Shown here: positions 4,178-53,138 of the stretch, piece after piece
How positions within the stretch are numbered: the first letter of the stretch is position 1
Layout of the letters: the number at the start of each line of letters is the position of its first letter
Source: Winogradskyella sp.
GTDB lineage: Bacteria > Bacteroidota > Bacteroidia > Flavobacteriales > Flavobacteriaceae
Assembly (NCBI RefSeq): GCF_028282165.1
Contig: NZ_JANQIM010000037.1
Location: 33,982-97,981 of the forward strand
Direction of reading: 5' to 3'
Length of the DNA: 64,000 bases
The notes under the pieces: generated by a model
What the model was told of the DNA's origin: nothing
The model's database searches: none
The model's input: the letters and a program-made list of their open reading frames with translations, nothing else
Position numbers and translations under genes: made by a program

Positions 4178-4197
4178 ATTCCCACTTTCGCGGGAAT
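4178..4197. repeat. REP-like short hairpin (attcccacTTTCgcgggaat)
   Basis: 7-bp stem (one mismatch) with a tetraloop. Same family as 42591-42610 and 42623-42642. It contains the first ATG of the ORF-track call. Confidence 0.5.
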
Positions 4198-34068: not shown

Positions 34069-34142
34069 ATTATAGATTATTTTTGTGATGTTTTAAATAA
34101 CTGCTACATTTACATAAGTACTTATATAAATATTTATTTAAT

Positions 34143-35099
34143 ATGGATGCATTAAGAGGTTACGGAGCGCTGGGTCTAGGCTCGAGATTAAAAAGAGTAA
34201 GTGAATATATGATGCGCGAAACACAACTTGTATATAACGCTTATAATATAGACTTTGACCCTTACCTATTCCCTGTTTTTAAGACCATTAGTCATTATAA
34301 CGGCATTACAAACACAGAACTCGTGGAGCAGCTAAAATTCACCCAGCCAGCTATTACTCAATTTGTAAATAAGCTCAACAAAAAAGGATATATAAAACAA
34401 CGCAACGATAAAACAGATAAGCGTAAGAAAATCATTCTTTTAACCAAAAAGGGAGAGAATTTATTGATTAATATAAAACCTATCTGGAATGCTATAGAAA
34501 AAACGGTAGATGAAACAGTTAATCATAAATCAGATTCCTTAATAGATCAAATAAATCTACTGGAAGATAGTTTTAAAACAATCGACTTTAATACGATGAT
34601 ACTAAATAATATAGAGGCCAGTATTGCCGGTCAAATTACAATAAATGATTATAAAACCGAATACAAACAAGCCTTTTACGATCTCAATATTGAATGGCTA
34701 AAAACTTTCTTTTATGTGGAACCCTTTGATGAAGACGTTCTTAGCAAGCCCGAAATGTATATCATAAATAAAGGTGGTTTTATATTCTTCGCGTTAAAGA
34801 ATGAACACGTTGTAGGCACCGTTGCCCTTATGCCAACCGAAGAACAAGGTGTCTTAGAACTTACTAAAATGGCTGTATTACCTCACCAGCGCGGTCAGAA
34901 AATTGGTCAACAACTATTACAGCATTGCATAGATTTTGCAAAGGTCAAAGAATTAAAAGCACTAATGCTCTACTCTAATACAAAACTGGAAAATGCCATC
35001 TATCTATACCGAAAGTATGGATTTAAGGAATTGGAGTTAGAAAAGAATAGACCTTATAAACGCTCTAATATAAAGATGCGATTAGAACTTAAAGCTTAA
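34143..35099 (+). CDS. bifunctional MarR-type HTH regulator / GNAT N-acetyltransferase
   Basis: 318 aa with an N-terminal winged-HTH (LKFTQPAITQFVNKLNKKGYIKQ) and a C-terminal GNAT motif (QRGQKIGQQLLQH...YRKYGF). Confidence 0.75.
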   Translation: MDALRGYGALGLGSRLKRVSEYMMRETQLVYNAYNIDFDPYLFPVFKTISHYNGITNTELVEQLKFTQPAITQFVNKLNKKGYIKQRNDKTDKRKKIILLTKKGENLLINIKPIWNAIEKTVDETVNHKSDSLIDQINLLEDSFKTIDFNTMILNNIEASIAGQITINDYKTEYKQAFYDLNIEWLKTFFYVEPFDEDVLSKPEMYIINKGGFIFFALKNEHVVGTVALMPTEEQGVLELTKMAVLPHQRGQKIGQQLLQHCIDFAKVKELKALMLYSNTKLENAIYLYRKYGFKELELEKNRPYKRSNIKMRLELKA

Positions 35100-36744
35100 A
35101 TTTTACCTTTAGATAATCGAATGCACCTTTGATATTCTCGAAGATGTGTTCCTCTGAAATCAAATCGGGTACAATATCTATAGAGATCAACTTATCTTTG
35201 GGCTGTTCTTGTAGGGCGGTAAGCAATACTTTAACTCCCTTCTTTTCCAAGTCCATAACTGCATTCTCCAAGGCGTATAAACCCGATTGATCTATATACG
35301 GTACACGATCCATCCGAATAATCAAGGCTTTTACCTCTTCTGGTATATTCTTTATTTCATTCTGAAAATGAGAGGTAAATCCAAAAAATAGTGGCCCATA
35401 TAAATGTTTAATATATACTTTATCCTTGTAATTATTATAGAATTCAACTTCATCTTGCCATGGTTTTTCACCATCAAAACCAGCTAAAGTTCCGACTTCC
35501 ATACCTTTTTCTCCAATATCACTTGCTTGCTTCATAAATAAAAGACAAGCTAATAATAGACCCATTCCAACGGCTTGTATTAAACTGCCAAATGTTGTTA
35601 CTAGAAGAACCAGGATTAGGACAAACGCATCGGCTCTAGGTACTGCCAACAAATGCTTTAATCCCTTGGTATCCACAATCTTAAACCCTATTGGGATTAA
35701 CAAGCCCGCAAGTACAGACAGAGGAATATAACCTGCTAATTTGCCTAAACCAAGGAGCACGGCCAAAAGCACCAAACCATGTATAGTTCCAGAAACACGG
35801 GTTCTACCACCTGAGTTAATATTAACTACAGTTCCCTTGGTTGCACCAGCACCAGGAATACCACCAAAAATTGCTGCTATTGAGTTTCCGATACCTTGAC
35901 CAATCAACTCTCTATTACTGTTATGCTTAGTTTTGGTCATATTGTCAGCAATGACTGAAGTTAGCAAAGAATCAATAGAGCCTAAAATTGCCAGTACGGT
36001 AGCATATTCGCCTATAAGCATATAAGCACTTGCATCTATTGAAAAAATACCATCGATCTGCAAAGAAGGTAATCCTGATGGAATATCACCAATGATAGGT
36101 ACATCCCACTTAAGAAAAAAGCCAACAACAGAAGCGACGATTAAAGCTACTAACGCACTTGGTATGACTTTGGTGATGTAAGGAAATACATAGTAAATCA
36201 CAACTGTTAAAGCTCCCAATGAGAGTGCCTGCCAATTAAAATCCGAAAACAAACGTGGTAAATCCTGAATAACCAACCAAGTGGATTTTGCGGAATCGAG
36301 CCCCACAAAAGGGAATAACTGAAGTATTACGATAATTAGTCCAACCCCACTCATAAAGCCAGAGACTACGGGATAAGGAAAATATTTTACATAACTGGCG
36401 ATGTTTAGAAACCCAAATATAATTTGAAAGATACCTCCAAGCAAAAATGTAAGAATAATGATAGGCATGGCTGCTTCTAAGCTTCCTGTAAGCTCAATTG
36501 CTGCAGCTACGAGCGCAGCCGAAACCACGGTCATTGGTCCTGTTGGTCCACTGGCTTGTGTCGCCGTGCCACCAAATATGGCCGCAAAAATTCCAACAGC
36601 TATGGCGCCATAAAGACCTGCAATAGCACCAAGTCCGGATTGTACACCAAAAGCCAAAGCTAATGGCAAGGCTACAACACCTGCGACTAAACCACCTGTT
36701 AAGTCTCCCTTAAAATATTTAAAATCGTAATATTTTGAAATCAT
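35089..36744 (-). CDS. SulP-family anion transporter with C-terminal STAS domain
   Basis: 551 aa with a multi-TM core (GLVAGVVALPLALAFG...) and a C-terminal STAS domain (IRMDRVPYIDQSGLYALE). Confidence 0.9.
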   Translation of the reverse strand: MISKYYDFKYFKGDLTGGLVAGVVALPLALAFGVQSGLGAIAGLYGAIAVGIFAAIFGGTATQASGPTGPMTVVSAALVAAAIELTGSLEAAMPIIILTFLLGGIFQIIFGFLNIASYVKYFPYPVVSGFMSGVGLIIVILQLFPFVGLDSAKSTWLVIQDLPRLFSDFNWQALSLGALTVVIYYVFPYITKVIPSALVALIVASVVGFFLKWDVPIIGDIPSGLPSLQIDGIFSIDASAYMLIGEYATVLAILGSIDSLLTSVIADNMTKTKHNSNRELIGQGIGNSIAAIFGGIPGAGATKGTVVNINSGGRTRVSGTIHGLVLLAVLLGLGKLAGYIPLSVLAGLLIPIGFKIVDTKGLKHLLAVPRADAFVLILVLLVTTFGSLIQAVGMGLLLACLLFMKQASDIGEKGMEVGTLAGFDGEKPWQDEVEFYNNYKDKVYIKHLYGPLFFGFTSHFQNEIKNIPEEVKALIIRMDRVPYIDQSGLYALENAVMDLEKKGVKVLLTALQEQPKDKLISIDIVPDLISEEHIFENIKGAFDYLKVKFKL

Positions 36745-37597: not shown

Positions 37598-38359
37598 TTA
37601 ATCACCATCACCTTTAGGGTAACGATTATTAAAATCAATTTGTAAAGCTTCTTTAAGTGTTGAAGTAAACTGTCTTAACACATAATGTTCCAATACACAT
37701 TCGTTATAATAGTCTTCGAGTTGTTTGTGGTGAATATTTAGTCTTGGTATATGAATCCTATTTATTACAACTTCATGTTGTTTATAAATGCCTAAGATTT
37801 TTTTGTGTGAAACAATATTTATCCATTTATAATCTTTAGCATAATCCTTAATAAGCTCAATAATGAATCGCTTTTCTGGTCTGTTGTATTCGGCACCCGT
37901 TTTTAGATACCAATCATTAATAAAACGTATGTAATGATGTAAACTAACAGATCTCCCATAATCTACATTAGCTTTAGAAACTAATTTTAAAACCAAACTA
38001 GAAAACTTGTCCGTTCCTTTAGTCTGATTATTCAAAACATGAAAAAAGAAACCTTTATGCTTTTTTTTAAAAAGCCCGTTTATGTAAATTTTTTCATCTT
38101 CAAATTTTGCAAGTTGTAAACTTTTGGTTGTTAATAGGTTAAATAAAGTTAACCTAAAAGTCCATAATACTAGTTGTTCCCAATCCTTTTTTTCAGTTAA
38201 TGAAACAAAATTGAATTCAAAATTATGATCACGGTAGATAGCATATAGACCAACGTCATCGCAGAAATAATTATCAAAACTTATTTCAATAATGTCTTCG
38301 CTTAGCCTTTTACGTTTGTAGAAATAAAAATTAAAAAGCTTAAACCTTGATATAACCAA
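37598..38359 (-). CDS. hypothetical protein
   Basis: 253-aa ORF starting 10 nt downstream of the preceding gene. I recognise no family. Confidence 0.5.
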   Translation of the reverse strand: MVISRFKLFNFYFYKRKRLSEDIIEISFDNYFCDDVGLYAIYRDHNFEFNFVSLTEKKDWEQLVLWTFRLTLFNLLTTKSLQLAKFEDEKIYINGLFKKKHKGFFFHVLNNQTKGTDKFSSLVLKLVSKANVDYGRSVSLHHYIRFINDWYLKTGAEYNRPEKRFIIELIKDYAKDYKWINIVSHKKILGIYKQHEVVINRIHIPRLNIHHKQLEDYYNECVLEHYVLRQFTSTLKEALQIDFNNRYPKGDGD

Positions 38360-38369
38360 TTTGTCATTT

Positions 38370-40064
38370 TTAATTCCCGATAGCTTTTAAAGAATCGATC
38401 TGACGTTGCAATGCCTCAATCTGTTTGGTGTTATCATCCACTTTAGGAATGGCCATTAAAGAGTCTATGGCTTGCTCAATAATATCCTCATCTTTCGGTA
38501 TTTCTTGATAGTAATAGCCAATACCTTCCTCAGATCGCCAAGCTTCATTTAGTTGATTATAAACGGTTTCATCCCAAGTACTTGGATGTTTTACATCAAT
38601 CCAAACCACATCGCGATATTCACTATCTATCAATACCAAATCTGGTGTAGCAGAACCGTCGAACTGTTGGGCGTTTTGGGCACTTATAGAAGAAATGGTT
38701 CCCAAGAAAAACATGCGCTTTCTACCAGCAATATCTTTAATATAAGGCCTAAATTCTACTGGTGTACTTGCATTCCAATCGTATTCCTTACGCGATTCCT
38801 TAACCTTTAATGGCATGGCAGACACACCGGCATAACCCTGTTTTTTTGTTGCATGATCGTAATAATATAACCTATCGGTTCCATCTGCAGGAACAAAAAC
38901 ACTATAACTTAAGCTTGTACGTTCATCGCCAACAGGTTCTAAACCAAACCAATGGTACAATCCGCTGTAAGCATCCGAATTACTTCCGGCAAAATCAAAA
39001 TCGGTGACATAAGGTTGTTGATTCTGATCTTTTGGCATAAGAGGAATCTTAACGGCTGTTTCCATATTCCAAGGTAATGGATCACTAAAACCGCCTAAGA
39101 ACTTCAAGGATTCTGCTTGTAATTGCGATACTTTCTCCGATAGTGTATTTTGCTTCGTTAAGAAGTTATAGTTTTTGATATCATCTGGACTCACAAAAGT
39201 ACCCTTGCCTATGGTAATACGCTCTAGATAATCATTAAAATCGTGGTCGCCATTGTCTACAATCATAACGCCACCAAATGTTGGATAAGGGAAGAAAAAG
39301 CCTTTCCATTTGATTAAACTCACTACCTGTACCCAAGCGCCTTCGTCATTCTTCATATAAAAGGTATCGCTCGGCTCATAATTAAATAACATCCAAGGAT
39401 TGAATCGCTGCACTACAGCATTATATGTATTTCTACTAAACATCAGTGATTCGCCTATTGAAAAAATGACCTCAATACGGTTTTCATTTGAAAACCTTGG
39501 AAATGGCGTTGTACTGCTCACGGAAAACACCTCTTCCGTATTGTCACTAAATCGTTGCATCACATATTTTTCACTTGGCTGAATGGCCATTGTCCATTTA
39601 TTCTCTGTCCCGATTCTTACTAAATGTGGTAAAGACACATCTTTTGTCTCACCCACACTCTCGTTAGCCATAGAGAAAATATTGCGTAAGGGTTGAATGC
39701 GCTCGTTTTGCGTTAAAGGCAATTCATCTATTTCTACTCTATTAAGGTGATTAAAAACATTATAGGTTTTCATGTAGTCATAGAGTCCTTGATTCCAACC
39801 CAAAAAATATAGTAGCCCAAAAAATATAATTAGTAATCCTAAAATGCTTAAACGTCCACCTGTACTAGCTGTTTTTCTGAATTTTCTAAGGCCTAGTATT
39901 AAAACCAATAGACTTACAAGAATTATGAATATATACTTTCTTAGAAATAGTAAAACGGGTTGATAGTCATCCCTGAAAAAGAAGAGTGCGAGCACGAGCA
40001 AAACTCCAACAATTACGACAATTCGCTTTTGTTTTGCGCCTTTATTCCAATAGTTTTTTATCAT
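38370..40064 (-). CDS. membrane-anchored large protein, unknown function
   Basis: 564 aa with 3 N-terminal TM helices, a ~430-aa soluble domain and a C-terminal coiled coil (QIEALQRQIDSLKA). Confidence 0.6.
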   Translation of the reverse strand: MIKNYWNKGAKQKRIVVIVGVLLVLALFFFRDDYQPVLLFLRKYIFIILVSLLVLILGLRKFRKTASTGGRLSILGLLIIFFGLLYFLGWNQGLYDYMKTYNVFNHLNRVEIDELPLTQNERIQPLRNIFSMANESVGETKDVSLPHLVRIGTENKWTMAIQPSEKYVMQRFSDNTEEVFSVSSTTPFPRFSNENRIEVIFSIGESLMFSRNTYNAVVQRFNPWMLFNYEPSDTFYMKNDEGAWVQVVSLIKWKGFFFPYPTFGGVMIVDNGDHDFNDYLERITIGKGTFVSPDDIKNYNFLTKQNTLSEKVSQLQAESLKFLGGFSDPLPWNMETAVKIPLMPKDQNQQPYVTDFDFAGSNSDAYSGLYHWFGLEPVGDERTSLSYSVFVPADGTDRLYYYDHATKKQGYAGVSAMPLKVKESRKEYDWNASTPVEFRPYIKDIAGRKRMFFLGTISSISAQNAQQFDGSATPDLVLIDSEYRDVVWIDVKHPSTWDETVYNQLNEAWRSEEGIGYYYQEIPKDEDIIEQAIDSLMAIPKVDDNTKQIEALQRQIDSLKAIGN

Positions 40065-40178: not shown

Positions 40179-40727
40179 TTACATCAAACCTTTATCCTTC
40201 AAACGGTCACGTGCACTTTTCTTTTCCACTTCTGGTTCGGTTTCTGGTTGCATATCCTCTTTGGGTTCTTCAACAATCTTATCGGTATCTGGTTTTAAAT
40301 CTTCAATTAAGTCTTTACCTTTTTCCACAGCATCAGTCACCAAATCGCCTAGGGAATCACTTTTCTCTTCAATAACTTTAGATGATTTTATTACAAAACT
40401 TGCCAAGTAAGTTCCAATTATAGTTCCTGTGGCAAAGGTTGCTAAACCAGATAAACCATAGAAGTTTGTAAATACTTTAATTGGCGTTAAGAATTGGAGA
40501 ATTAGTCCAATAATTAGAAGCGAAATAACTACAAATAGTAATCTTGGTATAAATGGCTGCTTATAGATAAATCCTTTAGGGTTATCGTCACTCATCTGGA
40601 GTTCTTTACTATTCATTATTTTATTGATAAATCGATAAGCGCCGTTTCCATTAGATTCTCGCCAATATATAAAAATCCCTACTAGAATAGCAGAAACAAA
40701 AATTATGATGTCAATTCCTAATCCCAT
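40179..40727 (-). CDS. membrane protein with acidic C-terminal tail, unknown function
   Basis: 182 aa with 3 TM segments and a C-terminus rich in E/K/D/P. Confidence 0.55.
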   Translation of the reverse strand: MGLGIDIIIFVSAILVGIFIYWRESNGNGAYRFINKIMNSKELQMSDDNPKGFIYKQPFIPRLLFVVISLLIIGLILQFLTPIKVFTNFYGLSGLATFATGTIIGTYLASFVIKSSKVIEEKSDSLGDLVTDAVEKGKDLIEDLKPDTDKIVEEPKEDMQPETEPEVEKKSARDRLKDKGLM

Positions 40728-40781: not shown

Positions 40782-41138
40782 TTAATGTTTTATCTTATTT
40801 CTGAATGCTATAGTCATATTCATTGAATCAAAACAGTCCTTATAATAGTTCTCAAATGTTTTTGTTTTCAAATAATTTCTTCTATTTGCTTTATGCAAAC
40901 ATGTTACTACTTCCGCAATAGATCGAATCGAATATCCCAAAAACTTTCTATATTCTGGTCCTGATTGCAAAATAGATCCTTCAGAAATATTTAATGCTAT
41001 AGAATCTGAAGCTCTTCGTAATTGAGAAGATAAATTAAAGTTTTCCTTATCAGGAAACAAATCAGCAAGCTCATTCATATCATCTCCCAAATCCATTGCT
41101 TTTTGCCAAATTAACAAATCTTCAAACCTAAACTTCAT
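40782..41138 (-). CDS. four-helix-bundle protein (23S rRNA intervening-sequence protein family, Avd-related)
   Basis: 118 aa with MKFRFEDLLIWQKAMDL...QLRRASDSIALNISEG, characteristic of the TIGR02436/PF05635-type family. Confidence 0.8.
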   Translation of the reverse strand: MKFRFEDLLIWQKAMDLGDDMNELADLFPDKENFNLSSQLRRASDSIALNISEGSILQSGPEYRKFLGYSIRSIAEVVTCLHKANRRNYLKTKTFENYYKDCFDSMNMTIAFRNKIKH

Positions 41139-41351: not shown

Positions 41352-42587
41352 CTATATGTTACTACTAATCGTTTCTATCACCCAATCCTTAAATGAATCA
41401 TTCCATGTCTCATAACTCTTGTAAAACTGTTCTTTATCGTACCAATACAAAAACAAAACATCCTTGGGCGAAATGTTAACTAACAGTTTATGTATTAAAT
41501 CACGATGCTTCGTTGACAGTGATGAATGTGGCTGATGCAAAGCAAAATATATGGCTTGATCTACCATATCCTCAATTTTATAGGCATTACTGCGCTCAAG
41601 CCTCTCAAGGTAAAGCTCAGCTCCCATTATTTGTTTTCGGGATTTGATATCTATTTTGTTGAGATAACTCCTAAACAAGGACTTGCTATCAAGGATTTCT
41701 TTTATCGGATGCTCTGCATCTTTAAGCAATTGGTATAGTTCAAATTTTTTAATGCGATCGTAATTGGGTGTTGTTACCATATACTCCAAATCACATTCGA
41801 TAATGATATGGCTCTTTAATTTATCGACCAGTTCTGGTTGGTTTATGTGGTATATCAGAACATCATGAATGGTATCTTTAATGGCTTCTTTATAGACCTT
41901 ATCACTTTCAAAAACCAAAATGGGCTTAATGAAGTCCCTCAATAAGTAAACACCACCAAAGGCCCTCGTATAAAAGGAATCAGTAGAAAAATGCAACGGA
42001 CCGAGGTTTAAATCCCTATTGCGCAAATCGCCATAAGTCTTTGCAGAATCCAACAACTCTTTATGTATTTGTTCATCAATAAAATTATTTTCTGTTTTAA
42101 ACTTATCGACGAGTTTTAGTTGTTCTTTTTGCTTTTCTTCGAGATTATCTATTAGTCTAAAAGTAATACTTACATCTTCATATTTTAAAACATCCAAGGG
42201 CTCATAAAACACGTCAATATCCTGGTCAAAATCAATACAAATAGCAGAATCTCTCGTAATATCATTTATTTTGCTTCCGTGTGTTCTGAAGATATGTAGC
42301 ATCATTTCCCTATCGAAGGAATGAAACGGTAAATAAACGGGTTTTCCTTTTTGCAATGGTGAGATAATGATGCCATGTGGATTAGCATCACCATGATTTA
42401 AATAATGAACATCATTTTTTTCTTCTGCAACCTCAGGACTCCAACCCACACCATCAATAGAAAAAGATTTGAGCTTTGTTGCTTTAAATCCTAGAGTTTT
42501 CAAGCACTTATTGTAACGCTCCACCAACTTTCCGCTTACGGGAATAAGTTCACTTCTATATAGATTTGCTTGTTTTAATTTGTCCAT
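41352..42587 (-). CDS. hypothetical protein (411 aa), operon member
   Basis: The track ORF extends to 42647, but its first 20 codons (MSFLRKQESQ...) translate the REP hairpins. MDKLKQANLY at 42587 is the likely start. Confidence 0.55.
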   Translation of the reverse strand: MDKLKQANLYRSELIPVSGKLVERYNKCLKTLGFKATKLKSFSIDGVGWSPEVAEEKNDVHYLNHGDANPHGIIISPLQKGKPVYLPFHSFDREMMLHIFRTHGSKINDITRDSAICIDFDQDIDVFYEPLDVLKYEDVSITFRLIDNLEEKQKEQLKLVDKFKTENNFIDEQIHKELLDSAKTYGDLRNRDLNLGPLHFSTDSFYTRAFGGVYLLRDFIKPILVFESDKVYKEAIKDTIHDVLIYHINQPELVDKLKSHIIIECDLEYMVTTPNYDRIKKFELYQLLKDAEHPIKEILDSKSLFRSYLNKIDIKSRKQIMGAELYLERLERSNAYKIEDMVDQAIYFALHQPHSSLSTKHRDLIHKLLVNISPKDVLFLYWYDKEQFYKSYETWNDSFKDWVIETISSNI

Positions 42588-42590
42588 TTT

Positions 42591-42642
42591 ATTGCCGCGA
42601 AAGCGGTAATCTTTATCTTGAGATTCCTGCTTTCGCAGGAAT
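42591..42642. repeat. twin REP-like hairpins attgccgcGAAAgcggtaat / attcctgcTTTCgcaggaat
   Basis: Two 7-8-bp stems with tetraloops, 12 nt apart. Confidence 0.6.
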
Positions 42643-42649
42643 GACATAC

Positions 42650-43228
42650 TTAAACTAATTGATGTATCTGAGCATATTGAATCAGCATAATCGTTTTTGC
42701 ATCGATGATTTCTTCATTTTCTATCATTTCTATTGCTTTTTGAAATGGCAGTTCCAATAGTTCTATTTCTTCATGCTCACTTTCTAAACCACCACCATCA
42801 TTTGTTTTCATCTGGTCATTATATTCTGCAACAAACAAATACATCTTTTCAGTCAACGCACCTGGCGAGGTGTAAGCTGTTAACACTTGCTTGGCTTCTT
42901 CAATCTTATAGCCTACTTCTTCCTCAGTTTCCCTTATAATGGTTTGAAGGGGCGAATCGTTGCCGTCGATAGCACCAGCACAGACTTCAATGGACATACT
43001 ATCCTTGGGGTTGTTCTCATAAATTGGCATTCGGAATTGTTTAGTTAAAACAACGGTGCCTTTATTCTTGTTATATAATAAAATAGCAGCGCCATTGCCG
43101 CGATTATAGGTTTCACGTTTTAGGCGTTTCCATTCACCATTTTTAAATTGAAAATCGTACTCAATACGATCCAACTTCGCCCAATCGTGGGAGAGGTTGA
43201 TGTGTTCTATGTTTTTTATATTTTTCAT
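42650..43228 (-). CDS. Nudix hydrolase (NudF/NudK-like nucleoside-diphosphate-sugar pyrophosphatase)
   Basis: Nudix box GAIDGNDSPLQTIIRETEEEVGY (GX5[D]X7REUXEEXGU). The track start at 43273 overlaps the AAA gene; MKNIKNIEH at 43228 abuts the AAA stop instead. Confidence 0.8.
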   Translation of the reverse strand: MKNIKNIEHINLSHDWAKLDRIEYDFQFKNGEWKRLKRETYNRGNGAAILLYNKNKGTVVLTKQFRMPIYENNPKDSMSIEVCAGAIDGNDSPLQTIIRETEEEVGYKIEEAKQVLTAYTSPGALTEKMYLFVAEYNDQMKTNDGGGLESEHEEIELLELPFQKAIEMIENEEIIDAKTIMLIQYAQIHQLV

Positions 43229-43232
43229 GCGA

Positions 43233-45194
43233 TTAATCCAGCTTTTCAAAACGCGCTCTAGCTTCCGTTTCAATATTTAGTTGGTCAATTCTTGCATCGA
43301 CTTTACGTTTAAAGTCCGTATCTGCAATAGTAGCCACATTATCTAAATAGCGCACCACTTCTTGTCGTCTTATGTCACTAAAGTCAAGCCCTTTCATATT
43401 GGTACGCATCAATTCTTGTAGCATACCAAATTTGGTATCGTAATCTTTTTTGAAATAAATTTCAGGATTTTCGAACCAATCGGGTTCTAAATCAAAATCC
43501 GTTAATCGTAAGGACACCGCTTTTTGAATATTCCTTACATCGCGTGATGAAAAGAATGGAAATATCTTTTGAATCTCAGTATATAAATGCGCATAGAACA
43601 TATGGTCATCGTCATCATATTTCTTAGCAACCTTTTCAAAAGTATCAAGCACACGTTCTTCGGTAGGCTTATCTATTTTTTCTAAGATTTCACCAAGGTT
43701 CTTCGCCACTTTTTGGGCATCCAAAAAGTTGTAATCTTCAGGATTATCCATGTTAATAAAATTGGGCATGGTATCCTCCAGCTTTCGCCACCATAGGTAA
43801 TCTTGGTCTACAAAATCCTTTTCATTGCGTGCGCCATCTATTTTAAAACGACCTTGTACACGCGAAATCACGGCTTTATCTAACATTTCGGGCAAATTGG
43901 TGAACAAACCGACGGAGCTATTACCATAGTTAACAGCGTATGCACCTTCGGTATATCTTAAAAAGACACCGATAACTTCTTTCACACCTGCCGAGACGCC
44001 TTGTGTCGTTCGCTCTTGCAAATTATTTTCCGCATCATCAATAGGGGCAAAAATTAAGCGTGTTGGATCCTGTAAGGGTTTCATCCACTCTACCATCTTC
44101 TCTGCTGAGCCGCCTTGAAAAGTACTTACAATTGTATCTGGCATGGGATGAAACAAAAATGGAATTTCTAAATTCTCACTATGTTCCTTCAGTCGTGTAG
44201 CTATGGCGGCAATCAACATACTTTTCCCTGTACCTGGAATGCCATAGCCCATAAACACAGGCATAAAACCGCCCAACTCTTGGAAAGGATTCTTTTTGGC
44301 TTCAAAATCATAGCTCAAAAGACGCTCCGTTAAACGTCTAGCAAAGTGCTTTGCATCTTTATTTCCGACAATTTGCTCAAACTGTACTTTATTGAATTCT
44401 ACACTGACCGCTGTACCTTGAAAGACATTATTCCACCCATCAACCGCAAAATCGGAATTCTCTAGTTTATAAGCTCTATCTACAATGGTTTCAGTGTACT
44501 CTAGCGTACTTTTACGTAACTGAATTTCGTCAATTAAAGCTTCAAAATATACAACCGTAAAGTCAATAACATCTTGATCTGTCTTTATAATATCCGGATG
44601 CCCTAAATACTTGTCATAATAAAACAATTGACAAGAGATTCCTTTAAGTGGTGAAATTAAAGAGACCTCTGGAATACCGGCAAACTTCTGTTTCATTACC
44701 GATAAGTCGTCTGAAGCATGGGGTTTTAGATCATGCAAAATTTTATAGGCTGTAGCAAACAACATAAAGGCCGTGGCGGTTTGCATTTTGCTTTCATATT
44801 CTCGTTTTCCTGCATTGTCTAGAGCTGATCTATTTTCGTACAAGGTGGATAATCCCGAAGCATCATAATAACTATCCTTAATCCATAAGCCAAGTGTAAT
44901 ACCTTCTTGTACACCAAACAAAGCATGGTTGAGATGTATAGGAATTGCCACCGATTCTGGTAACAAGCGTTTCTTTAAGGCTAAAATGGTTTTTGAAACG
45001 GAGGTCACAGCAACACTACTGCCATTATTGGCTCTGGACAGATATAAAAGAATCGACTCATCCTTACCGTCATTATCCCTATTCTTAGCCCGTTGACTTT
45101 GCTCCCATTGAATGGACTTTAGGTAAGATGTCGCTTCATCACGAAGCATATCGAGTTCATTTTGTTTTATAGGAAAGGTTGAGTTGTGTTCCAT
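43233..45194 (-). CDS. AAA-family ATPase with a large unknown N-terminal domain
   Basis: 653 aa with a single AAA module (Walker A GIPGTGKS, probable Walker B LIFAPIDDAE, then TNLPEMLDKAVISRVQGRF). About 330 aa precede it without a recognisable family. Confidence 0.75.
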   Translation of the reverse strand: MEHNSTFPIKQNELDMLRDEATSYLKSIQWEQSQRAKNRDNDGKDESILLYLSRANNGSSVAVTSVSKTILALKKRLLPESVAIPIHLNHALFGVQEGITLGLWIKDSYYDASGLSTLYENRSALDNAGKREYESKMQTATAFMLFATAYKILHDLKPHASDDLSVMKQKFAGIPEVSLISPLKGISCQLFYYDKYLGHPDIIKTDQDVIDFTVVYFEALIDEIQLRKSTLEYTETIVDRAYKLENSDFAVDGWNNVFQGTAVSVEFNKVQFEQIVGNKDAKHFARRLTERLLSYDFEAKKNPFQELGGFMPVFMGYGIPGTGKSMLIAAIATRLKEHSENLEIPFLFHPMPDTIVSTFQGGSAEKMVEWMKPLQDPTRLIFAPIDDAENNLQERTTQGVSAGVKEVIGVFLRYTEGAYAVNYGNSSVGLFTNLPEMLDKAVISRVQGRFKIDGARNEKDFVDQDYLWWRKLEDTMPNFINMDNPEDYNFLDAQKVAKNLGEILEKIDKPTEERVLDTFEKVAKKYDDDDHMFYAHLYTEIQKIFPFFSSRDVRNIQKAVSLRLTDFDLEPDWFENPEIYFKKDYDTKFGMLQELMRTNMKGLDFSDIRRQEVVRYLDNVATIADTDFKRKVDARIDQLNIETEARARFEKLD

Positions 45195-45199
45195 CTGTT

Positions 45200-45233
45200 T
45201 AGTCTTCAGTTCGCAGTGCCCAGTCTACAGTCA
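45200..45233. repeat. heptamer array (YAGTNNN)x5, core CAGT, flank of four-helix-bundle gene 2
   Basis: tagt ctt cagt tcg cagt gcc cagt cta cagt cac. CAGT occurs at 45207, 45214, 45221 and 45228. Confidence 0.85.
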
Positions 45234-45239
45234 CTTTTA

Positions 45240-45608
45240 TTATTTAAATTTATCAGGGTTATTCATCATGTAGTGGATGAGTTTGCCTATTTCTTCGCTT
45301 TTTAAATGCAATTCATTCTTATCTTTTTCAGAAATATATTCGCAAGCTAATGCAAAGTCCAGCCACAATTGAGTCTCTGAGTTTTCACTATCAGCATCAG
45401 ACATTTTGCTTTTAAAATGTTTCTCATATTGTCGTTTTCTGTAGCCCTCTGCAATATTCGAACATACAGACCGACTCGATCTAACCATTTGCGATGTTAA
45501 TCCAAACATTTCAGATTTCGGAAACTGTTTAGTCAAATGAAAAATATCCATTGCTAGATTGAAACCTTTTTGATATGCTAATAATGTTTTAAATGACATA
45601 TTGCTCAA
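45240..45608 (-). CDS. four-helix-bundle protein (23S rRNA IVS protein family)
   Basis: 122 aa with ...AYQKGFNLAMDIF...QMVRSSRSVCSNIAEGY... It sits inside the operon, between the 348-aa gene and the AAA gene. Confidence 0.8.
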   Translation of the reverse strand: MSNMSFKTLLAYQKGFNLAMDIFHLTKQFPKSEMFGLTSQMVRSSRSVCSNIAEGYRKRQYEKHFKSKMSDADSENSETQLWLDFALACEYISEKDKNELHLKSEEIGKLIHYMMNNPDKFK

Positions 45609-45615
45609 TTCTCTT

Positions 45616-45650
45616 ACTGCATACTGCCAACTGAAACTGCATACTCATAT
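45616..45650. repeat. heptamer array with core ACTG (inverted relative to 45200-45233)
   Basis: actg cat actg cca actg aa actg cat actc ata tact. Periods are 7, 7, 6 and 7 nt. Confidence 0.8.
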
Positions 45651-45652
45651 AC

Positions 45653-46699
45653 TTACTTTTCAATTTTCAAATCCGCTAATTCAACTGGTGGAATAGCCAG
45701 GTTGTTCATAATCTCTGGTGTTTTATTGTACAATAACTGTATAATTCTATGTGGTGCAAATACATAGCGTTGTCTAAACGTATTCCCCCATTTTTGAAAG
45801 ACTTGCTTGCTAAAAAAACTCCCTTCCTTAAATTGGCTTTGCGAACTGAGTTCGTCTACCTTAAAGGATACTACAAAAGACTCAAGCGGTATGGTCTTCT
45901 TTGATATACCATCTAATATGGCATGGGTGACTTCGTTTTCATCCTTTGCAAATACATTATGAATTGGTCCCAGGTCTATGCGCCTTATCAACTTTGGCAA
46001 TACCTTGGGTAATCGCTTATCAATGGCATAAGCCATGGTATCTAAAGCCATTTCACGATCCGATGTGTTCTTTAAAACACTGTAAATCTCGTCCTTATAG
46101 CCTTGTACATCTTTTCCATCATAGTTAAAATACATGTAACAAATAAATGGTCTGTTGTGTGTGACGTCGTAAAAGCTCCAACTCACTAAATGCGCAGCAG
46201 GTGAACCCTTGGGTGCATCAATAATCTTGCCTTGCACGAAACGATTGAAAATATATTCCTTCCTTGCAGATGTATAATACACTATCGAAGCCGCCTGGAA
46301 TAACTTTCGTTTAGAAATAGGCTGTTTTTTTCGCATTAAGGTATCCAAGAATTCTTCTTTTAGAACATCAATATCTGTCAGTCTACTGAGAAACTCTTCC
46401 CTAAGTTCTAAATCATTGAACAAGTAACGGAACTCTAGATAATTTGGAAAACTAGAATCTGTTAGATCCACCTTCATATTCTCATCATCATCGTACATAT
46501 ACTTAACTCGCATAGCCTCAATTGAATACAATAGTAAATCTGTGTATTGCTTAAACAACAAAACCTCTTGCTGATTTAGTATTTGTTTGGCTTGAACAGC
46601 AGTTATGAGTTCTTTGAGCGTAAAATCTATCATTTTGTGATAGAATACATATTGCTCTTTAGAATCTAAAGTTGCTGAATCTAGTGGTGTTACAATCAT
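45653..46699 (-). CDS. hypothetical protein (348 aa), operon member
   Basis: Long ORF, co-directional with its neighbours. I recognise no family. Confidence 0.55.
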   Translation of the reverse strand: MIVTPLDSATLDSKEQYVFYHKMIDFTLKELITAVQAKQILNQQEVLLFKQYTDLLLYSIEAMRVKYMYDDDENMKVDLTDSSFPNYLEFRYLFNDLELREEFLSRLTDIDVLKEEFLDTLMRKKQPISKRKLFQAASIVYYTSARKEYIFNRFVQGKIIDAPKGSPAAHLVSWSFYDVTHNRPFICYMYFNYDGKDVQGYKDEIYSVLKNTSDREMALDTMAYAIDKRLPKVLPKLIRRIDLGPIHNVFAKDENEVTHAILDGISKKTIPLESFVVSFKVDELSSQSQFKEGSFFSKQVFQKWGNTFRQRYVFAPHRIIQLLYNKTPEIMNNLAIPPVELADLKIEK

Positions 46700-46703
46700 G
46701 GTT

Positions 46704-46723
46704 TAGTTCGCAGTTTGCAGTCA
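46704..46723. repeat. short heptamer array tagt tcg cagt ttg cagt cac (solo copy, same orientation and sequence type as 45200-45233)
   Basis: It shares agttcgcagt and the ending cagtcac with the 45200 array. Confidence 0.7.
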
Positions 46724-46777
46724 CAGGATGAGTTACATCGTTACTTTGACGGGATACTGTTTACTCATTGCTTTGAT

Positions 46778-48121
46778 TTACGACAGTAAATCGTCCTCAT
46801 TGACCTCTGGTTTTGGCTCACCTTCTGGCTCTCCTCCACCATCACTTGGTGCGTTTGGATCGGCATTATAGTATTCGGTAAAAATCTCTTTCATATCAAT
46901 ACCGTAGCGATCAGCAAAGTTCTTCTGAATTTCGGCATCCTTAGATCTAATATCCTTAAGTGCTTCGGCATAACTACCGTAAATGCCTTGCATCACCTTC
47001 TCATGTACTGGAATATTATCCATCATTTCTTGACGTGCCTTTGCACTAGCGGTATGCATTGCAGCCAATGTTTCACCAATATGTTCATCGGTTTTCACTC
47101 CTAAATGTTCTAAAATAGCCGCAAACTCCTGGTCTGTGCGTGCTTTTAAGGCCACAACATAGCCATCGTAATATTTTAAACGCTCATCGGTATCGGATTT
47201 AAGTTTAGCACGATGTGTCTGCAAATTACTTCTCAAAGAGGTCAATACCTTAATGGTTAAGTTATGCTTGTGAACAAAACTATCCTTAGAAGCTGCTAAA
47301 GTTGTGTAAGCATTTTTGAGACCTTCTAACTCTTCTACTTTTTGCTCGAGTTGTGTAACTTTCTCTAAAGCCTCTGAATATTCGGGCGATTGTTTATCGG
47401 CGACTTCTTCTAAGGCCTGTCTTGCTTGTTTTAAAAGTGCATATTGCTCTTCGAGCCTAGCTTCAACCTCTTCTTTCTTCTGGAGTGCTTTGGTATGATT
47501 GTTACTAGCTTCAACGATAGCTACTTTTAAACTCTCCTCTACTTCCTTAATTTCAAGCTCTCTATCCTTTAAACGTTTAATTGCTGCTTGGCTCTTAAAT
47601 GATAACTCATTTAGCAAGGTTTGTACATCTGCCGTTTCAATTCGCTGCTGAAACATAGCTTTCGCTCTATTATCGGCACCATCACGTTGTTTTTGGGCAG
47701 CAGCTAATTCGTCTTCTGCTTTCTTTATCTTGCTTTTACGTCCCCATAGATTATTCCACCAAGTATCTGGTTTGGCTTTTGCATCTTCTAGCTCAACTTT
47801 GGCTCGTTCTAAACGTCTAACGGCATCGTCAATGATTTTTTGCTCTGCGGCATTTAGTGCAGAAAAACCTTCGAACATAATCCCTACCTCGTCCTGATAA
47901 TCTGTTAAATCCTTAATAGCATCGAGAAGTGTTGTCCGATCTTTTTCGGCCATATCAACAACATTGTCTAAGGTGGCATTTAAGATTTTCTGACGACTTT
48001 CTGGATCATCCTCCTGAGCCAATTTAGACTTCATTTGGTCTATGGCTTTTCCCCAATTGACTTCTACTTTTTCAGTTTTTTCTTGCGAGTTAGTCTCTAA
48101 TAAATCAAAATCATCAGACAT
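46778..48121 (-). CDS. long coiled-coil protein with Gly/Pro/Glu-rich linker and acidic C-terminal tail; first gene of the operon
   Basis: 447 aa, almost entirely helical and heptad-like (e.g. KALQKKEEVEARLEEQYALLKQARQALEEV). The C-terminus is ...PSDGGGEPEGEPKPEVNEDDLLS. There are no TM segments. Confidence 0.6.
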   Translation of the reverse strand: MSDDFDLLETNSQEKTEKVEVNWGKAIDQMKSKLAQEDDPESRQKILNATLDNVVDMAEKDRTTLLDAIKDLTDYQDEVGIMFEGFSALNAAEQKIIDDAVRRLERAKVELEDAKAKPDTWWNNLWGRKSKIKKAEDELAAAQKQRDGADNRAKAMFQQRIETADVQTLLNELSFKSQAAIKRLKDRELEIKEVEESLKVAIVEASNNHTKALQKKEEVEARLEEQYALLKQARQALEEVADKQSPEYSEALEKVTQLEQKVEELEGLKNAYTTLAASKDSFVHKHNLTIKVLTSLRSNLQTHRAKLKSDTDERLKYYDGYVVALKARTDQEFAAILEHLGVKTDEHIGETLAAMHTASAKARQEMMDNIPVHEKVMQGIYGSYAEALKDIRSKDAEIQKNFADRYGIDMKEIFTEYYNADPNAPSDGGGEPEGEPKPEVNEDDLLS

Positions 48122-48623: not shown

Positions 48624-48848
48624 ATGCTTAATAAACTGCTTTCCAAGGCTTTAATAGTGACTACCACACAACTAACTATGATATTGATAGCCGTTGCATC
48701 TATTTTCCTTGTATTCATAATTATTGCGATTATAAAGATGTATAAGTTAAAAGCGGAAAACAAGAAATTGATGGAAACCAATGCCTTTAAAGATGTTGAC
48801 GATACCTATAAAGATTTTACAAGTGGACATCTTTATGGTGATAATTAG
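48624..48848 (+). CDS. small single-TM protein
   Basis: 74 aa with the TM segment MILIAVASIFLVFIIIAII. It is followed by a strong terminator. Confidence 0.45.
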   Translation: MLNKLLSKALIVTTTQLTMILIAVASIFLVFIIIAIIKMYKLKAENKKLMETNAFKDVDDTYKDFTSGHLYGDN

Positions 48849-48862
48849 CAATAAAAAATATT

Positions 48863-48898
48863 AAAAAAAAAGGCTAGCGTTTGCTAGCCTTTTTTTTT
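48863..48898. terminator. bidirectional rho-independent terminator
   Basis: An A8 run, then aggctagc-gttt-gctagcct, then a T8 run, between convergent genes. Confidence 0.85.
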
Positions 48899-48913
48899 AA
48901 TAATGCCAAATCA

Positions 48914-50636: not shown

Positions 50637-51024
50637 TTAATTATTGCTTTTTTTAAATTTTTGTCCTTTTATTTTTGAGTTTCTTAAATAGTACATTAAT
50701 GCGCCAATTTTATTTTTAACCGTTTCACACATTTCGGATAGTTTTTCAAAATCAGTTTGACTTATATAGCCTTTATCTAATAGACTTTAACTCGCTGGCA
50801 GATCCTTTGGAGTAACTCAGGAAGTTATGGAATTCTTTCGTTCCATCTCTATCAAAACCTTCTGCTATGTTATCCATAATCGAACCAGAACTTCCTTCCA
50901 TCTGATTTCTTAGCCTAGAGTTATTTATAATTTGAGTAGAATTAATAAGGGTATCGACAAACTGACAAATCTTCCTAGCTCTCTGCCAAACTTCCAAGTC
51001 CTCAAACTTTTCAATACGCGCCAT
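50637..51024 (-). pseudogene. disrupted four-helix-bundle (23S rRNA IVS family) gene
   Basis: The first 81 aa are family-typical (FEDLEVWQRARKI...GSIMDNIAEGF...SASELKS), then IR-stop at 50773. The family C-terminus (LLDKGYISQTDFEKLSEMCETVKNKIGALMYYL...) continues in another frame down to 50637. The E..YI spacing is about 5 aa shorter than in the two intact copies, suggesting a short out-of-frame deletion. Confidence 0.65.
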
Positions 51025-51361: not shown

Positions 51362-52063
51362 TTACTTTAAAATATCAAAAACGCTATTCTTGTAAATAGC
51401 TCCTATTGGTATTTCTATTGCCCCTATCTCCACATCAATTTTGGTAAATGCTGTAACTTTAGAAATATTAACAATGTATGAGCGATGAACTCTTACAAAT
51501 TGCTTTGGAAGTTTAGTTTCAAAATTAGAAATCGTTTCCTTTGTTACAACGTTAGAGTTTTCTAAGATGATTCTAATATAATCTTTAATACTTTCTATAT
51601 ATAGTATTTCAGAAAAAGATATTTTAATATGTTTTTTATTAGAATTAACATATAAATGGTCTAGTGAATCTTCTGTGGTTTTATTTTGAATTAAAGGATC
51701 TCTTACTGCGGATAGGCTTTTATACTTGGTTATTGCTTTAAAAAAACGCTTAAACGAAATTGGTTTTAACAAATAATCTACCACATCTAGCTCATAACTT
51801 TCGATAGCATAATTGCGATAAGCAGTAGTTAAAATGACTTTAGGTGGGCTTTTTAATGTTTTTATAAATTCTATACCTGATAAAATAGGCATTTCAATAT
51901 CTAAGAAAATAAGATCAATAGGATTAGAATTTAAAATTTCAACGGCATTAATAGGATTATTTAAACTCGCCACTAACTCCAAATCCGGAATCTGATCCAT
52001 ATGTGACTTAATAACTTCTAAAGCTAAAGGTTCATCATCTATTGCGATACATCTTATGGTCAT
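51362..52063 (-). CDS. LytTR-family response regulator
   Basis: 233 aa with a receiver domain (CIAIDDEPLA...LIFLDIEMP) and a C-terminal LytTR DNA-binding domain (FVRVHRSYIVN). Confidence 0.9.
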   Translation of the reverse strand: MTIRCIAIDDEPLALEVIKSHMDQIPDLELVASLNNPINAVEILNSNPIDLIFLDIEMPILSGIEFIKTLKSPPKVILTTAYRNYAIESYELDVVDYLLKPISFKRFFKAITKYKSLSAVRDPLIQNKTTEDSLDHLYVNSNKKHIKISFSEILYIESIKDYIRIILENSNVVTKETISNFETKLPKQFVRVHRSYIVNISKVTAFTKIDVEIGAIEIPIGAIYKNSVFDILK

Positions 52064-52064
52064 T

Positions 52065-53138
52065 TTAATTCAAATCTAAATTCAATTCAATAAAGTAACT
52101 GTCTGAAGTCTCTTTGACCTCAATGTTGTGTTTGTTAGGATAATAAATCTCTAATTGTCTTCTTAGGTTTATATTCCCAATTCCCGATTTGTTATAATCT
52201 TTTTGTTTCAGTAAATTTTTCAATTTACTATTAAAAACACTAAATCTTAAAAGTCTTTTACTAACAGACAAGTCTATTAAAATCCTAGTATGTATAGGAT
52301 CGCTGCTAACCCCATGCTTAAATGCATTCTCTACCAAAGGCAATAATAGTAATGGTGCAATTTGTGCTTTACCATCATCTAAGTTATGATCAAATACTAT
52401 ATCTAATGTATCCCCATACCTCAGTGCTTCTAATTCAATGAAACCATTGATCAACTCAATTTCTTGAATCAAAGGTATAGATGTCTGGTCACTTTGGTAT
52501 AAAATAAAGTCTAGTAACTCAGATAGCTTTAAAACTACTTTAGGTGCTAAATCAGACTTTAAAAGTGTTAAGGCATATAAATTATTTAGAGTATTAAATA
52601 AGAAATGTGGCTGAATTTGAGCTTTTAAAAATTTAAGCTCATTAACTACTTTTTCCTTTTCTAAAATTTCTATGCGCTGCTTCTCATCAAATCTTCGTTT
52701 TAAAACTTTAATAATTAGCATTATAAATGCATAAATATATACTGACGGAAAATAGATAGAAAAAAGATAAGCCGTGTCAGACAAGATTTCTACTATTGAC
52801 TCTTGGGTGAAATCACTCCGTATAAATGGTTCAGCCAAATAGACAATAGACCATCTGCCAAATGCTGAAAGTAGATATATACTAAGTACTATTGAAATAG
52901 CAAACCCAATAAACTTCTTCTTAAAAAGAAGCCTCGGTATTTGAAAATAATTCAATAAATAAGCAGCTATAATCTGAGAAGGTAACAAAGCTATATAGCT
53001 ATACATATTATACTTTAGTTCACCTGTGTTCAATGTCGCCGATATAGTAAATAAGGTAATGAAGGATAGCCAAAACAGAACATGCGTAACTACTCTGTTT
53101 TTAAAAATAGTATCAATTGACCGAACAATTTTTTTCAC
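52065..53138 (-). CDS. LytS/YehU-type sensor histidine kinase
   Basis: 357 aa with multi-TM N-terminal helices, the His-kinase motif QIQPHFLFNTLNNL and an ATPase N-box LLLLPLVENAFKHG. It ends 1 nt upstream of the regulator gene. Confidence 0.85.
   Translation of the reverse strand: MKKIVRSIDTIFKNRVVTHVLFWLSFITLFTISATLNTGELKYNMYSYIALLPSQIIAAYLLNYFQIPRLLFKKKFIGFAISIVLSIYLLSAFGRWSIVYLAEPFIRSDFTQESIVEILSDTAYLFSIYFPSVYIYAFIMLIIKVLKRRFDEKQRIEILEKEKVVNELKFLKAQIQPHFLFNTLNNLYALTLLKSDLAPKVVLKLSELLDFILYQSDQTSIPLIQEIELINGFIELEALRYGDTLDIVFDHNLDDGKAQIAPLLLLPLVENAFKHGVSSDPIHTRILIDLSVSKRLLRFSVFNSKLKNLLKQKDYNKSGIGNINLRRQLEIYYPNKHNIEVKETSDSYFIELNLDLN

Follow-up and report, generated by a model that had tools for sequence, protein, structure and literature searches.

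A 64,000-nucleotide (nt) stretch of contig NZ_JANQIM010000037.1 from a Winogradskyella species (Flavobacteriaceae), which we refer to as the window, encodes a hitherto undescribed system whose motor, an ATPase of the classical AAA clade, is of a known kind. All open reading frames (ORFs) of this module lie on the minus strand. Four soluble proteins make up a core that is invariant and collinear across phyla, and their genes run in the order CC447 (an all-helical coiled-coil protein of 447 amino acids (aa), 46778..48121), U348 (a protein of 348 aa, 45653..46699), the 653-aa ATPase (43233..45194) and a 411-aa DUF6638 protein (41352..42587). In Bacteroidota and in one lineage of Patescibacteria, the unit also includes two membrane proteins, a 182-aa protein with three transmembrane (TM) segments (the 3-TM protein, 40179..40727) and a 564-aa protein (38370..40064), encoded by the fifth and sixth genes of the module at a conserved position in the loci. 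The initial annotation of the window had proposed a run of five genes, one of them encoding a Nudix hydrolase, and a possible extension downstream. All five genes, their lengths and the motifs quoted for them were present on the minus strand at the coordinates given in this report. The unit itself has to be redrawn, since the core and the 3-TM and 564-aa proteins belong to it, the Nudix hydrolase does not and a 253-aa protein that had been named as a possible member probably lies outside.

That these genes form one conserved unit, as had been suggested, was borne out by a comparison of gene neighbourhoods in 97 loci, in which the core was linked throughout. These loci comprise 80 Flavobacteriaceae species genomes, contigs with distant homologues of the ATPase and annotated proteobacterial replicons. 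The Flavobacteriaceae loci are the best 80 of at least 551 species hits obtained in a genome scan with an 11-sequence alignment, and a metagenome scan with a distant clade gave three loci. The ORFs of all loci were searched by iterated profiles, and counts out of 86 given below refer to a subset of 86 loci. CC447, U348, the ATPase and DUF6638 are encoded in the same order and on one strand in every sufficiently long locus, with protein identities down to 21-28%. Core order is kept at 21-47% protein identity over at least five phyla and on differing replicon types. The lineages that carry it are Flavobacteriaceae, a divergent Flavobacteriales metagenome-assembled genome (MAG) (L093), Chitinophagales (L085), a Trueperaceae MAG (L084), Armatimonadota (L089), Patescibacteria (L090 and L092), uncultured lineages (L086-L088, L091, L094 and L095), Sinorhizobium, Rhizobium, Shinella and Vibrio plasmids of approximately 0.9 Mb. 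With gene order and strand repeated in 97 loci that belong to several phyla, the linkage is far beyond chance.

The core was found both on a chromosome-size replicon of Sinorhizobium meliloti (L096) and on a Vibrio megaplasmid (L097). Within the plasmid collection, all six records with a tblastn match to DUF6638 fall among the ten ATPase-bearing records, and each DUF6638 match adjoins an AAA match. In a Vibrio vulnificus record, the neighbour of the ATPase is annotated as DUF6638 despite a sub-threshold tblastn result. Identity between genera is 84% for the ATPase and about 83-89% for CC447, and synteny with an ABC-F gene is kept in 68 of 86 loci. This conservation and synteny in Flavobacteriaceae are of the housekeeping type. 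We found no copy of the module in viral contigs or phage genomes, and a mobile or viral origin was rejected on these grounds; the unit is chromosomal and vertically kept.

Three of the distant loci have peculiarities of their own. The Patescibacteria locus L090 (GCA_964269605.1) holds the full six-gene module. Genes called there at 598 and 629 aa fragment under translation table 11, which together with the GC content of 33% suggests that UGA is recoded in this lineage (code 25-type). The record that holds L096 (CP090106.1, labelled 'plasmid pSymB', 3.72 Mb) carries choline-transporter, tdk and fhs genes and looks like a mislabelled S. meliloti chromosome. In the non-mobilizable replicons of approximately 0.9 Mb from V. 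vulnificus and V. parahaemolyticus (L097 and its relatives), the core lies beside mfd, an RNase H family gene and an A24 peptidase gene.

The motor of the system is 97% identical to Winogradskyella proteins and matches PF00004 over residues 317-452 with 36.3 bits against a cut-off of 21.2. PF00004 also matches 35 of 36 diverse members of the ATPase family. This family is small and sharply bounded: at E<=1e-3, a set of 1.8 billion yields 437 cluster representatives, which have a full length of about 650 aa. The ATPase is laid out as a novel N-domain (residues ~1-260), the N-terminal helices of the AAA fold, the AAA module and a helical C-terminal extension. An N-region of about 330 aa had been described as belonging to no recognised family; the novel part is shorter, at about 260 aa, and the remainder consists of N-terminal helices of the AAA fold. 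Profile searches of the window ATPase and the 36 diverse members revealed neither MIT, CDC48_N or a double-psi barrel nor any other known N-domain. When the family profile was compared with solved structures, Vps4B, which has a single domain, gave the best per-domain match (63.7 bits), and Cdc48, VAT, p97 and Afg2 gave about 52 bits per domain. No paralogy was detected among the N- and C-domains of the ATPase, U348, DUF6638 and CC447.

The catalytic motifs of the ATPase include the Walker A motif GIPGTGKS (318-325), a pore loop STFQGGS (357-363), the segment LIFAPIDDAE (380-389) with Walker B as DDAE (386-389), the sensor-1 residue N433, the Arg finger R445 and a sensor-2 region SSRDVRNIQ (549-557). 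We aligned 92 full-length cluster representatives, in which the Walker A Lys (K324), the sensor-1 Asn (N433) and R551 of the lid are present in all 92, and the Arg finger R445 of the second region of homology in 91. The Mg-binding D386 is kept in 91 of the 92. At position 387, 86 representatives have Asp and five have Glu, and at position 389, 91 have Glu or Asp; Walker B in this family contains an acidic pair. The pore loop reads [YFW]-Q-G in most representatives. The initial annotation was right to see an AAA module in which the usual Walker B DE is not obvious, and the alignment accounts for the apparent loss: the missing DE is a family-wide DDxE variant within an otherwise complete module. 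As judged from its sequence, the ATPase has all the motifs expected of an active, substrate-threading classical AAA protein with a pore loop.

A homologue of CC447 is encoded upstream of the U348 gene in every sufficiently long locus, including those of S. meliloti and Vibrio. The early description of a helical protein of 447 aa with the ending EVNEDDLLS was accurate, and an AlphaFold2 (AF2) model made from a 14-sequence alignment is almost wholly helical, with helices at residues 3-363 and 379-413. Helices 166-239 and 246-363 pair into a long hairpin. The model has a predicted local distance difference test score (pLDDT) of 62 and a predicted template modelling score (pTM) of 0.42, and pLDDT rises to 70-95 over residues 90-280. 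A Trp-rich basic patch, PDTWWNNLWGRKSK, is located at a helix break at about residues 117-130, and an aromatic-basic counterpart is present in most lineages. The tail had been singled out as a short terminal peptide, and it does behave as a conserved short linear motif: the C-terminus is DD[LM]L[GS] in 77 of 78 Flavobacteriaceae homologues and EDLLS in the other, and the G/P/E linker that precedes the DDLLS of the window protein varies freely in sequence. In addition, 76 of the 78 homologues begin with M[SAP]DDFDLLE (MSDDFDLLE in the window protein). Related C-terminal ends are NELLD in Chitinophagales and SDMLG in the divergent Flavobacteriales MAG (L093), and CC447 proteins of the Trueperaceae type have FDSDQLL at the N-terminus and are without a C-terminal copy.

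In a Foldseek search of the PDB with the CC447 model, the best matches, all of them weak, were ClyA-family toxins (AhlC, AhlB, SmhB, MakA, ClyA and PaxB) and F-BAR domains. For AhlC, SmhB, MakA and ClyA, E ranged from 3e-3 to 3.5e-2 and the template modelling score from 0.15 to 0.27. At the profile level, Bacillus_HBL was found below threshold in two of ten diverse CC447 homologues, with a best E of 0.0014, and T3SSipB in one. The putative membrane-binding helical bundle to which this model points is a lead only. It had also been suggested that the module resembles PspA/ESCRT-III or TelA systems. None of Snf7 (PF03357), PspA_IM30 (PF04012) and TelA (PF05816) matched in the ten diverse CC447 homologues at E<=5, the ATPase has no MIT domain by profile, and ESCRT-III, PspA and Vipp1 structures were not among the top 50 PDB fold matches of the low-confidence CC447 model. 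Therefore, homology to PspA, ESCRT-III or TelA is unsupported, and the comparison with ESCRT and PspA survives only as a functional analogy. The names 'microtubule-binding protein', 'myosin heavy subunit' and 'chromosome segregation ATPase', which CC447 homologues have been given automatically in NCBI and UniRef, were rejected as coiled-coil artefacts without a supporting domain match.

The two other core proteins are U348, whose gene is always directly upstream of the ATPase gene, and DUF6638, whose gene comes after it in all loci. No Pfam, NCBIfam, PADLOC or PDB match was found for U348. Its alignment contains the conserved motifs SGFPN, SW..YD...NRP, HPK.LKR..LGP and PH...Q.L, and the invariant polar residues Y20, S82, D96, W174, D227, K236, S286, H317 and Q321 would fit a catalytic or binding site. 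For the fifth protein of the initial annotation, the length of 411 aa stood, and the family, which had not been recognised, is DUF6638 (PF20343, 124.1 bits against a cut-off of 27); NCBI names its homologues 'DUF6638 family protein'. The AF2 model of DUF6638 (pLDDT 84.4, pTM 0.80) is alpha/beta in its N-terminal half and helical in its C-terminal half, and it has no significant structural neighbour in the PDB (best E 0.32, template modelling score 0.13) or in BFVD (best E 0.23). A longer ORF of 431 aa that starts at 42647 was rejected as the form of this gene: its first 20 codons correspond to an intergenic hairpin, the first of two in the spacer, which reads MSFLRKQES in the spurious form, and the homologues are 411 aa, with the ATG at 42587.

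The genes for the two membrane proteins follow directly after DUF6638 in all Flavobacteriaceae loci, and likewise in L085, L093, L094 and L090. The TM segments of the 3-TM protein lie at residues 2-20, 63-81 and 95-113, and its variable acidic cytoplasmic tail ends in the conserved peptide KSARDRLKDKGLM. This tail end, KSAR[DE]RLKDKGL[ML], is invariant across Flavobacteriaceae and is a second candidate docking motif in the module. The 564-aa protein has N-terminal TM helices at 15-33, 38-56 and 72-90, and the approximately 470 aa beyond them make up an extracytoplasmic domain. It matched nothing in Pfam or the PDB, and homologues occur in the same position in at least 74 loci. Other lineages have other membrane genes at this place. 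In the Armatimonadota locus (L089), an unassigned 3-TM protein of 171 aa replaces the 3-TM protein; a 2-TM DUF2333 protein follows DUF6638 in L092, L095 and S. meliloti; and in L091 a 2-TM dynamin-like GTPase and a DUF1523 protein follow, with a Band_7 gene upstream. A relationship between the 564-aa protein and DUF2333 was considered and rejected (hhalign probability 0.1). Three downstream genes had been named as possible members of the unit, and the first two of these are confirmed by their conserved position. The third, which encodes the 253-aa protein (37598..38359, minus strand), has a homologue in 13 of 86 loci and about 31% inter-genus identity, and it is probably a lineage-restricted, fast-evolving neighbour outside the module.

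The Nudix hydrolase (192 aa, 42650..43228, minus strand) had been read as an enzyme added to the module, and this part of the proposal did not hold up. Its start does abut the stop of the AAA gene, as described, with the ATG at 43228 lying 4 nt past the AAA stop codon. The gene occupies a hypervariable intergenic slot that separates the ATPase gene from the DUF6638 gene (42588-43232 in the window; also loci L001-L082 and L096) and was found in 58 of 86 loci, which are all from Flavobacteriaceae; it is absent from every locus outside this family. In other Flavobacteriaceae, the slot is occupied by unrelated ORFans of 133-442 aa, at times along with the Nudix gene. No Pfam family was found for these ORFans, one of which has a weak DUF3592 match. 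In S. meliloti Ak57 (L096), the slot is filled by an endonuclease-domain gene and ISRm16, and in all remaining lineages it is closed, the ATPase and DUF6638 genes abutting or overlapping. The Nudix hydrolase is also poorly conserved, with 53-55% inter-genus identity against 84% for the ATPase. It is a local passenger. It belongs with the NudK/ADP-ribose pyrophosphatase family in its score for TIGR00052 (YffH/AdpP subfamily, 151.7 bits, cut-off 79.55) and in its intact Nudix box, GAIDGNDSPLQTIIRETEEEVGY, which has the pattern GX5DX7RETEEEVGY with Asp in place of the first Glu. On the other hand, the equivalog model for NudK, a GDP-mannose pyrophosphatase (NF011585), aligned over the full length with 184.4 bits, which is below the cut-off of 234, and the substrate is therefore not assigned.

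Two further passengers encode four-helix-bundle proteins of the 23S_rRNA_IVP/TIGR02436 family. They lie between the U348 and ATPase genes (45240..45608, minus strand, PF05635 with 114 bits) and between the DUF6638 and 3-TM genes (40782..41138, minus strand, PF05635 with 97 bits). Such genes are sporadic, occurring in 17-18 of 86 loci and in differing slots, so that their initial treatment as insertions outside the unit was correct and the family can now be named. A third copy at 50773-51024 (minus strand) is truncated to 83 aa (PF05635, 71 bits), which makes three 23S_rRNA_IVP/TIGR02436 genes in about 10 kb. In related genomes, they shift among intergenic slots as if they were small mobile inserts. 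The operon evidently tolerates insertions. The Nudix-DUF6638 spacer also contains two short GAAA-loop hairpins (42591..42641), TTCCTGCGAAAGCAGGAA and ATTGCCGCGAAAGCGGTAAT, and a hairpin that resembles them is found at 4179-4196; these are repetitive extragenic palindrome-like or RNA-stability elements.

Our preferred reading of the module, which we hold tentatively, is a membrane-anchored AAA machine that remodels a helical scaffold made of CC447. CC447 would be an elongated helical-hairpin scaffold on the cytoplasmic face of the inner membrane, held there via its Trp-rich basic patch, the membrane partners or both. A hexameric ATPase would be recruited by the terminal DDFDLL and DDLL peptides of CC447 and by the KSARERLKDKGLM tail of the 3-TM protein, and would spend ATP to thread, disassemble or reset the scaffold, in the manner of Vps4 on ESCRT-III, katanin/spastin on tubulin tails or NSF on SNAREs. 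U348 and DUF6638 might serve as obligate adaptor or regulatory subunits, and the membrane proteins might couple the ATPase cycle to an envelope event. It is likely that the physiological role of the system is membrane/envelope maintenance or remodelling.

Several points weigh against this scheme. No experiment and no homology ties any of the partner proteins to a known function, and both the docking of the tails and the view of CC447 as the substrate are purely inferential. Confidence in the CC447 model is low (pLDDT 62, pTM 0.42), and its weak fold matches (E>=3e-3, template modelling scores <=0.27) are of the kind that any long hairpin of helices would give. Outside Bacteroidota, CC447 lacks the C-terminal DDLL peptide, and there is no adjacent membrane gene in the Trueperaceae (L084), L086 and Vibrio loci. 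In the Walker B motif of the ATPase, the Mg-binding Asp is followed by a second Asp where Glu is canonical, so that hydrolysis could be slow or regulated. Finally, the taxonomic labels of MAGs (Trueperaceae, Limisphaerales) may be binning errors.

Two rival functions were also considered. The ATPase might be a cytosolic chaperone or unfoldase, comparable to EccA of type VII secretion, that delivers CC447 as a cargo or effector to the membrane proteins. The terminal peptides would then be targeting signals, and CC447, which weakly resembles ClyA-family pore formers, would be inserted or secreted. This would be consistent with the ClyA-family alpha-pore-forming toxins as the best fold matches of CC447, with the sub-threshold Bacillus_HBL (two of ten homologues) and T3SSipB (one) similarities, with a protein that has no signal peptide and yet carries conserved peptides at both termini, and with the large extracytoplasmic domain of a partner membrane protein. 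However, these similarities are all weak and come from a low-confidence model, an identity of 83-89% between genera would be odd for a secreted effector, and the module is a core-genome feature, Patescibacteria included. Pfam and NCBIfam scans of the window proteins showed no known secretion-system component, and some lineages have no adjacent membrane gene. We consider such an export or assembly function unlikely. Similarly improbable, in our judgement, is a role in membrane-protein quality control, in which the ATPase would extract or unfold client membrane proteins in the manner of Msp1, Cdc48 or a protease-less FtsH, and CC447, U348 and DUF6638 would provide recruitment and substrate selection, with CC447 not itself a substrate. 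The closeness of the AAA module to Cdc48/VAT/p97 and Vps4, the intact pore loop, the conserved membrane partners and the housekeeping-level conservation would all suit this role. Nevertheless, profile searches detected no protease, ubiquitin-like or adaptor domain of known systems, and the strict co-inheritance of CC447, as a long coiled-coil protein with terminal peptides, is better explained if CC447 is the substrate or scaffold, as in the remodelling machine that we prefer.

It is highly improbable, and by the present data largely refuted, that the locus is an anti-phage or conflict system with the Nudix hydrolase as effector or signal-degrading enzyme and the ATPase as sensor. Variable genes do occur inside the locus, and weak sub-threshold matches were obtained in PADLOC/NCBIfam between the ATPase and IetA/IteA and between the Nudix hydrolase and PDC-S07. 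However, these matches are generic to P-loop and Nudix proteins (E 7e-5 to 0.02), the Nudix gene is absent from 28 of 86 loci as well as from all loci outside Flavobacteriaceae, and no viral or phage copies were found. Moreover, the core occurs in at least 551 species, keeps a fixed place in its syntenic context and shows 84% inter-genus identity, which is the opposite of defence-island behaviour. The idea that the genes are chance or local-synteny neighbours with unrelated functions might draw on the lack of a family assignment for all components except the ATPase, Nudix and DUF6638 proteins, and on the insertions, which show that the operon bears interruption. It is refuted by the conservation data, namely a four-gene order that persists at 21-47% identity in no fewer than five phyla and on replicons of different types, and we give it virtually no weight. 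The rest of the probability goes to functions that we cannot name.

In the window, the module is part of a series of 11 co-directional ORFs on the minus strand, which extends from a strong intrinsic-type terminator at 48902-48859 down to about 37600 and in which a 170-aa protein, after the 253-aa gene, is the last. The intergenic gaps measure 4-114 nt, with the exception of 213 nt ahead of the second four-helix gene. The upstream boundary of the unit is marked by the terminator-like hairpin (48859..48902, minus strand), a 20-bp stem followed by a T-run, which lies 3' of the upstream ABC-F gene. The 790-nt spacer between ABC-F and the module contains a 74-aa single-TM ORF (48624-48848, plus strand) with a weak DUF4446 match (E 7.5e-4), and in Olleya a comparable small gene has been called in this position. 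Ordinary genes make up the flanks (51362-53138 and 35089-36744, minus strand; 33055-35099, plus strand), including a LytTR response regulator with a His_kinase sensor, a SulP/STAS transporter, a MarR-GNAT fusion and an arginase-family protein. In the loci compared, these flank genes are not conserved with the module beyond close relatives. An Rfam search of the whole window gave no match.

The system had not been recognised in the initial annotation, and we likewise found no description of it in the literature or databases searched. Literature searches with DUF6638, PF20343, DUF2333, the 'microtubule-binding protein' of Flavobacteria and candidate S. meliloti locus tags found nothing that describes it, and DUF6638 and PF20343 are not mentioned in any paper of the collection searched. 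A survey of PSP, ESCRT and AAA contexts (PMC11237479) gives other AAA associations and not the present module. In S. meliloti, a ChvI-bound DNA fragment has been mapped inside SMc02733 (PMC3687685). By gene order, SMc02733 could be the ATPase gene, which is a tentative lead. The names that databases give to the components say little or are wrong ('AAA family ATPase', 'DUF6638 family protein', 'hypothetical protein' and, for CC447, 'microtubule-binding protein'). CC447, U348 and the 3-TM, 564-aa and 253-aa proteins match nothing in Pfam and NCBIfam. For CC447, U348, DUF6638 and the 564-aa protein, searching the PDB by sequence and by profile returned noise only. When eight proteins were scanned against PADLOC-DB, only generic P-loop and Nudix matches were obtained (best E 6.7e-5); U348, DUF6638 and the 564-aa and 253-aa proteins had no match, and the 3-TM protein matched only at E>=0.017. 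The same eight proteins gave only weak generic matches in PHROGs.

Five of the six conserved proteins are without a characterised homologue, and DUF6638 has a confident model and yet no structural neighbour. Within Flavobacteriaceae the module is nearly as conserved as translation factors, and it is kept in genome-reduced Patescibacteria. This high conservation and the co-retention of the genes across distant bacteria point to a basic, unstudied cell-biological function. The presence of the module in Sinorhizobium meliloti and in culturable Flavobacteria makes genetics directly possible.

Among the closest known systems are Vps4/ESCRT-III (CdvC/CdvB) and PspA-Vipp1. They share with the present module a classical AAA protein with an aromatic pore loop, Vps4B being the best per-domain match, a helical-hairpin partner with a disordered linker and a conserved terminal peptide, and a genetic link to membrane proteins, here including the dynamin-like and Band_7 genes of L091. 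Unlike their counterparts, CC447 has no Snf7 or PspA_IM30 match and is twice the length of ESCRT-III or PspA, the ATPase shows no MIT domain in profile searches and has DDxE instead of DExx in Walker B, and U348 and DUF6638 have no equivalent. With Cdc48/p97/VAT, the ATPase shares an AAA module that aligns with both D1 and D2 of Cdc48/VAT (profile E ~1e-29) and a large N-domain, which presumably binds adaptors. Acidic-hydrophobic terminal peptides are a further likeness: the C-terminal tail of p97 is DDLYG, which the CC447 tail recalls. However, there is a single AAA module here instead of a tandem pair, CDC48_N and the double-psi barrel were not detected, and the acidic-hydrophobic tail is on the ATPase itself in p97, whereas here it is on the partner protein. 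The ClyA-family toxins (ClyA, AhlBC, SmhB, MakA and Hbl) and F-BAR proteins, which provide the best folds for CC447, are elongated antiparallel membrane-binding helical bundles. Unlike a toxin, CC447 is highly conserved, belongs to the core genome and shares an operon with an ATPase, and its scores are below the family thresholds. TelA resembles CC447 in being cytoplasmic, all-helical, about 400 aa long and encoded in stress-type operons, but PF05816 did not match in ten CC447 homologues.

The proposed ATPase-CC447 machine is not a member of the Vps4/ESCRT-III, katanin or NSF families. A more far-reaching interpretation, which for now we regard as doubtful, is that the module is an ancient, unrecognised machine for membrane remodelling or repair, analogous to ESCRT-III/Vps4 and PspA and made of unrelated parts. 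In such a machine, a single-ring Cdc48/Vps4-like DDxE ATPase would cyclically disassemble a ClyA/BAR-like scaffold via terminal DDLL-type peptides. U348 and DUF6638, as proteins of new folds, would assist, and anchoring would fall to interchangeable membrane modules, namely the 3-TM protein together with the 564-aa protein, DUF2333 or a dynamin-like protein, the whole being kept from Patescibacteria through Bacteroidota to Alpha- and Gammaproteobacteria. If ATP-driven remodelling of a membrane scaffold is indeed the function of the module, it would join PspA/Vipp1 and dynamin-like proteins as a third solution in bacteria, and would provide a bacterial single-ring relative of Cdc48 and Vps4 with defined partners.

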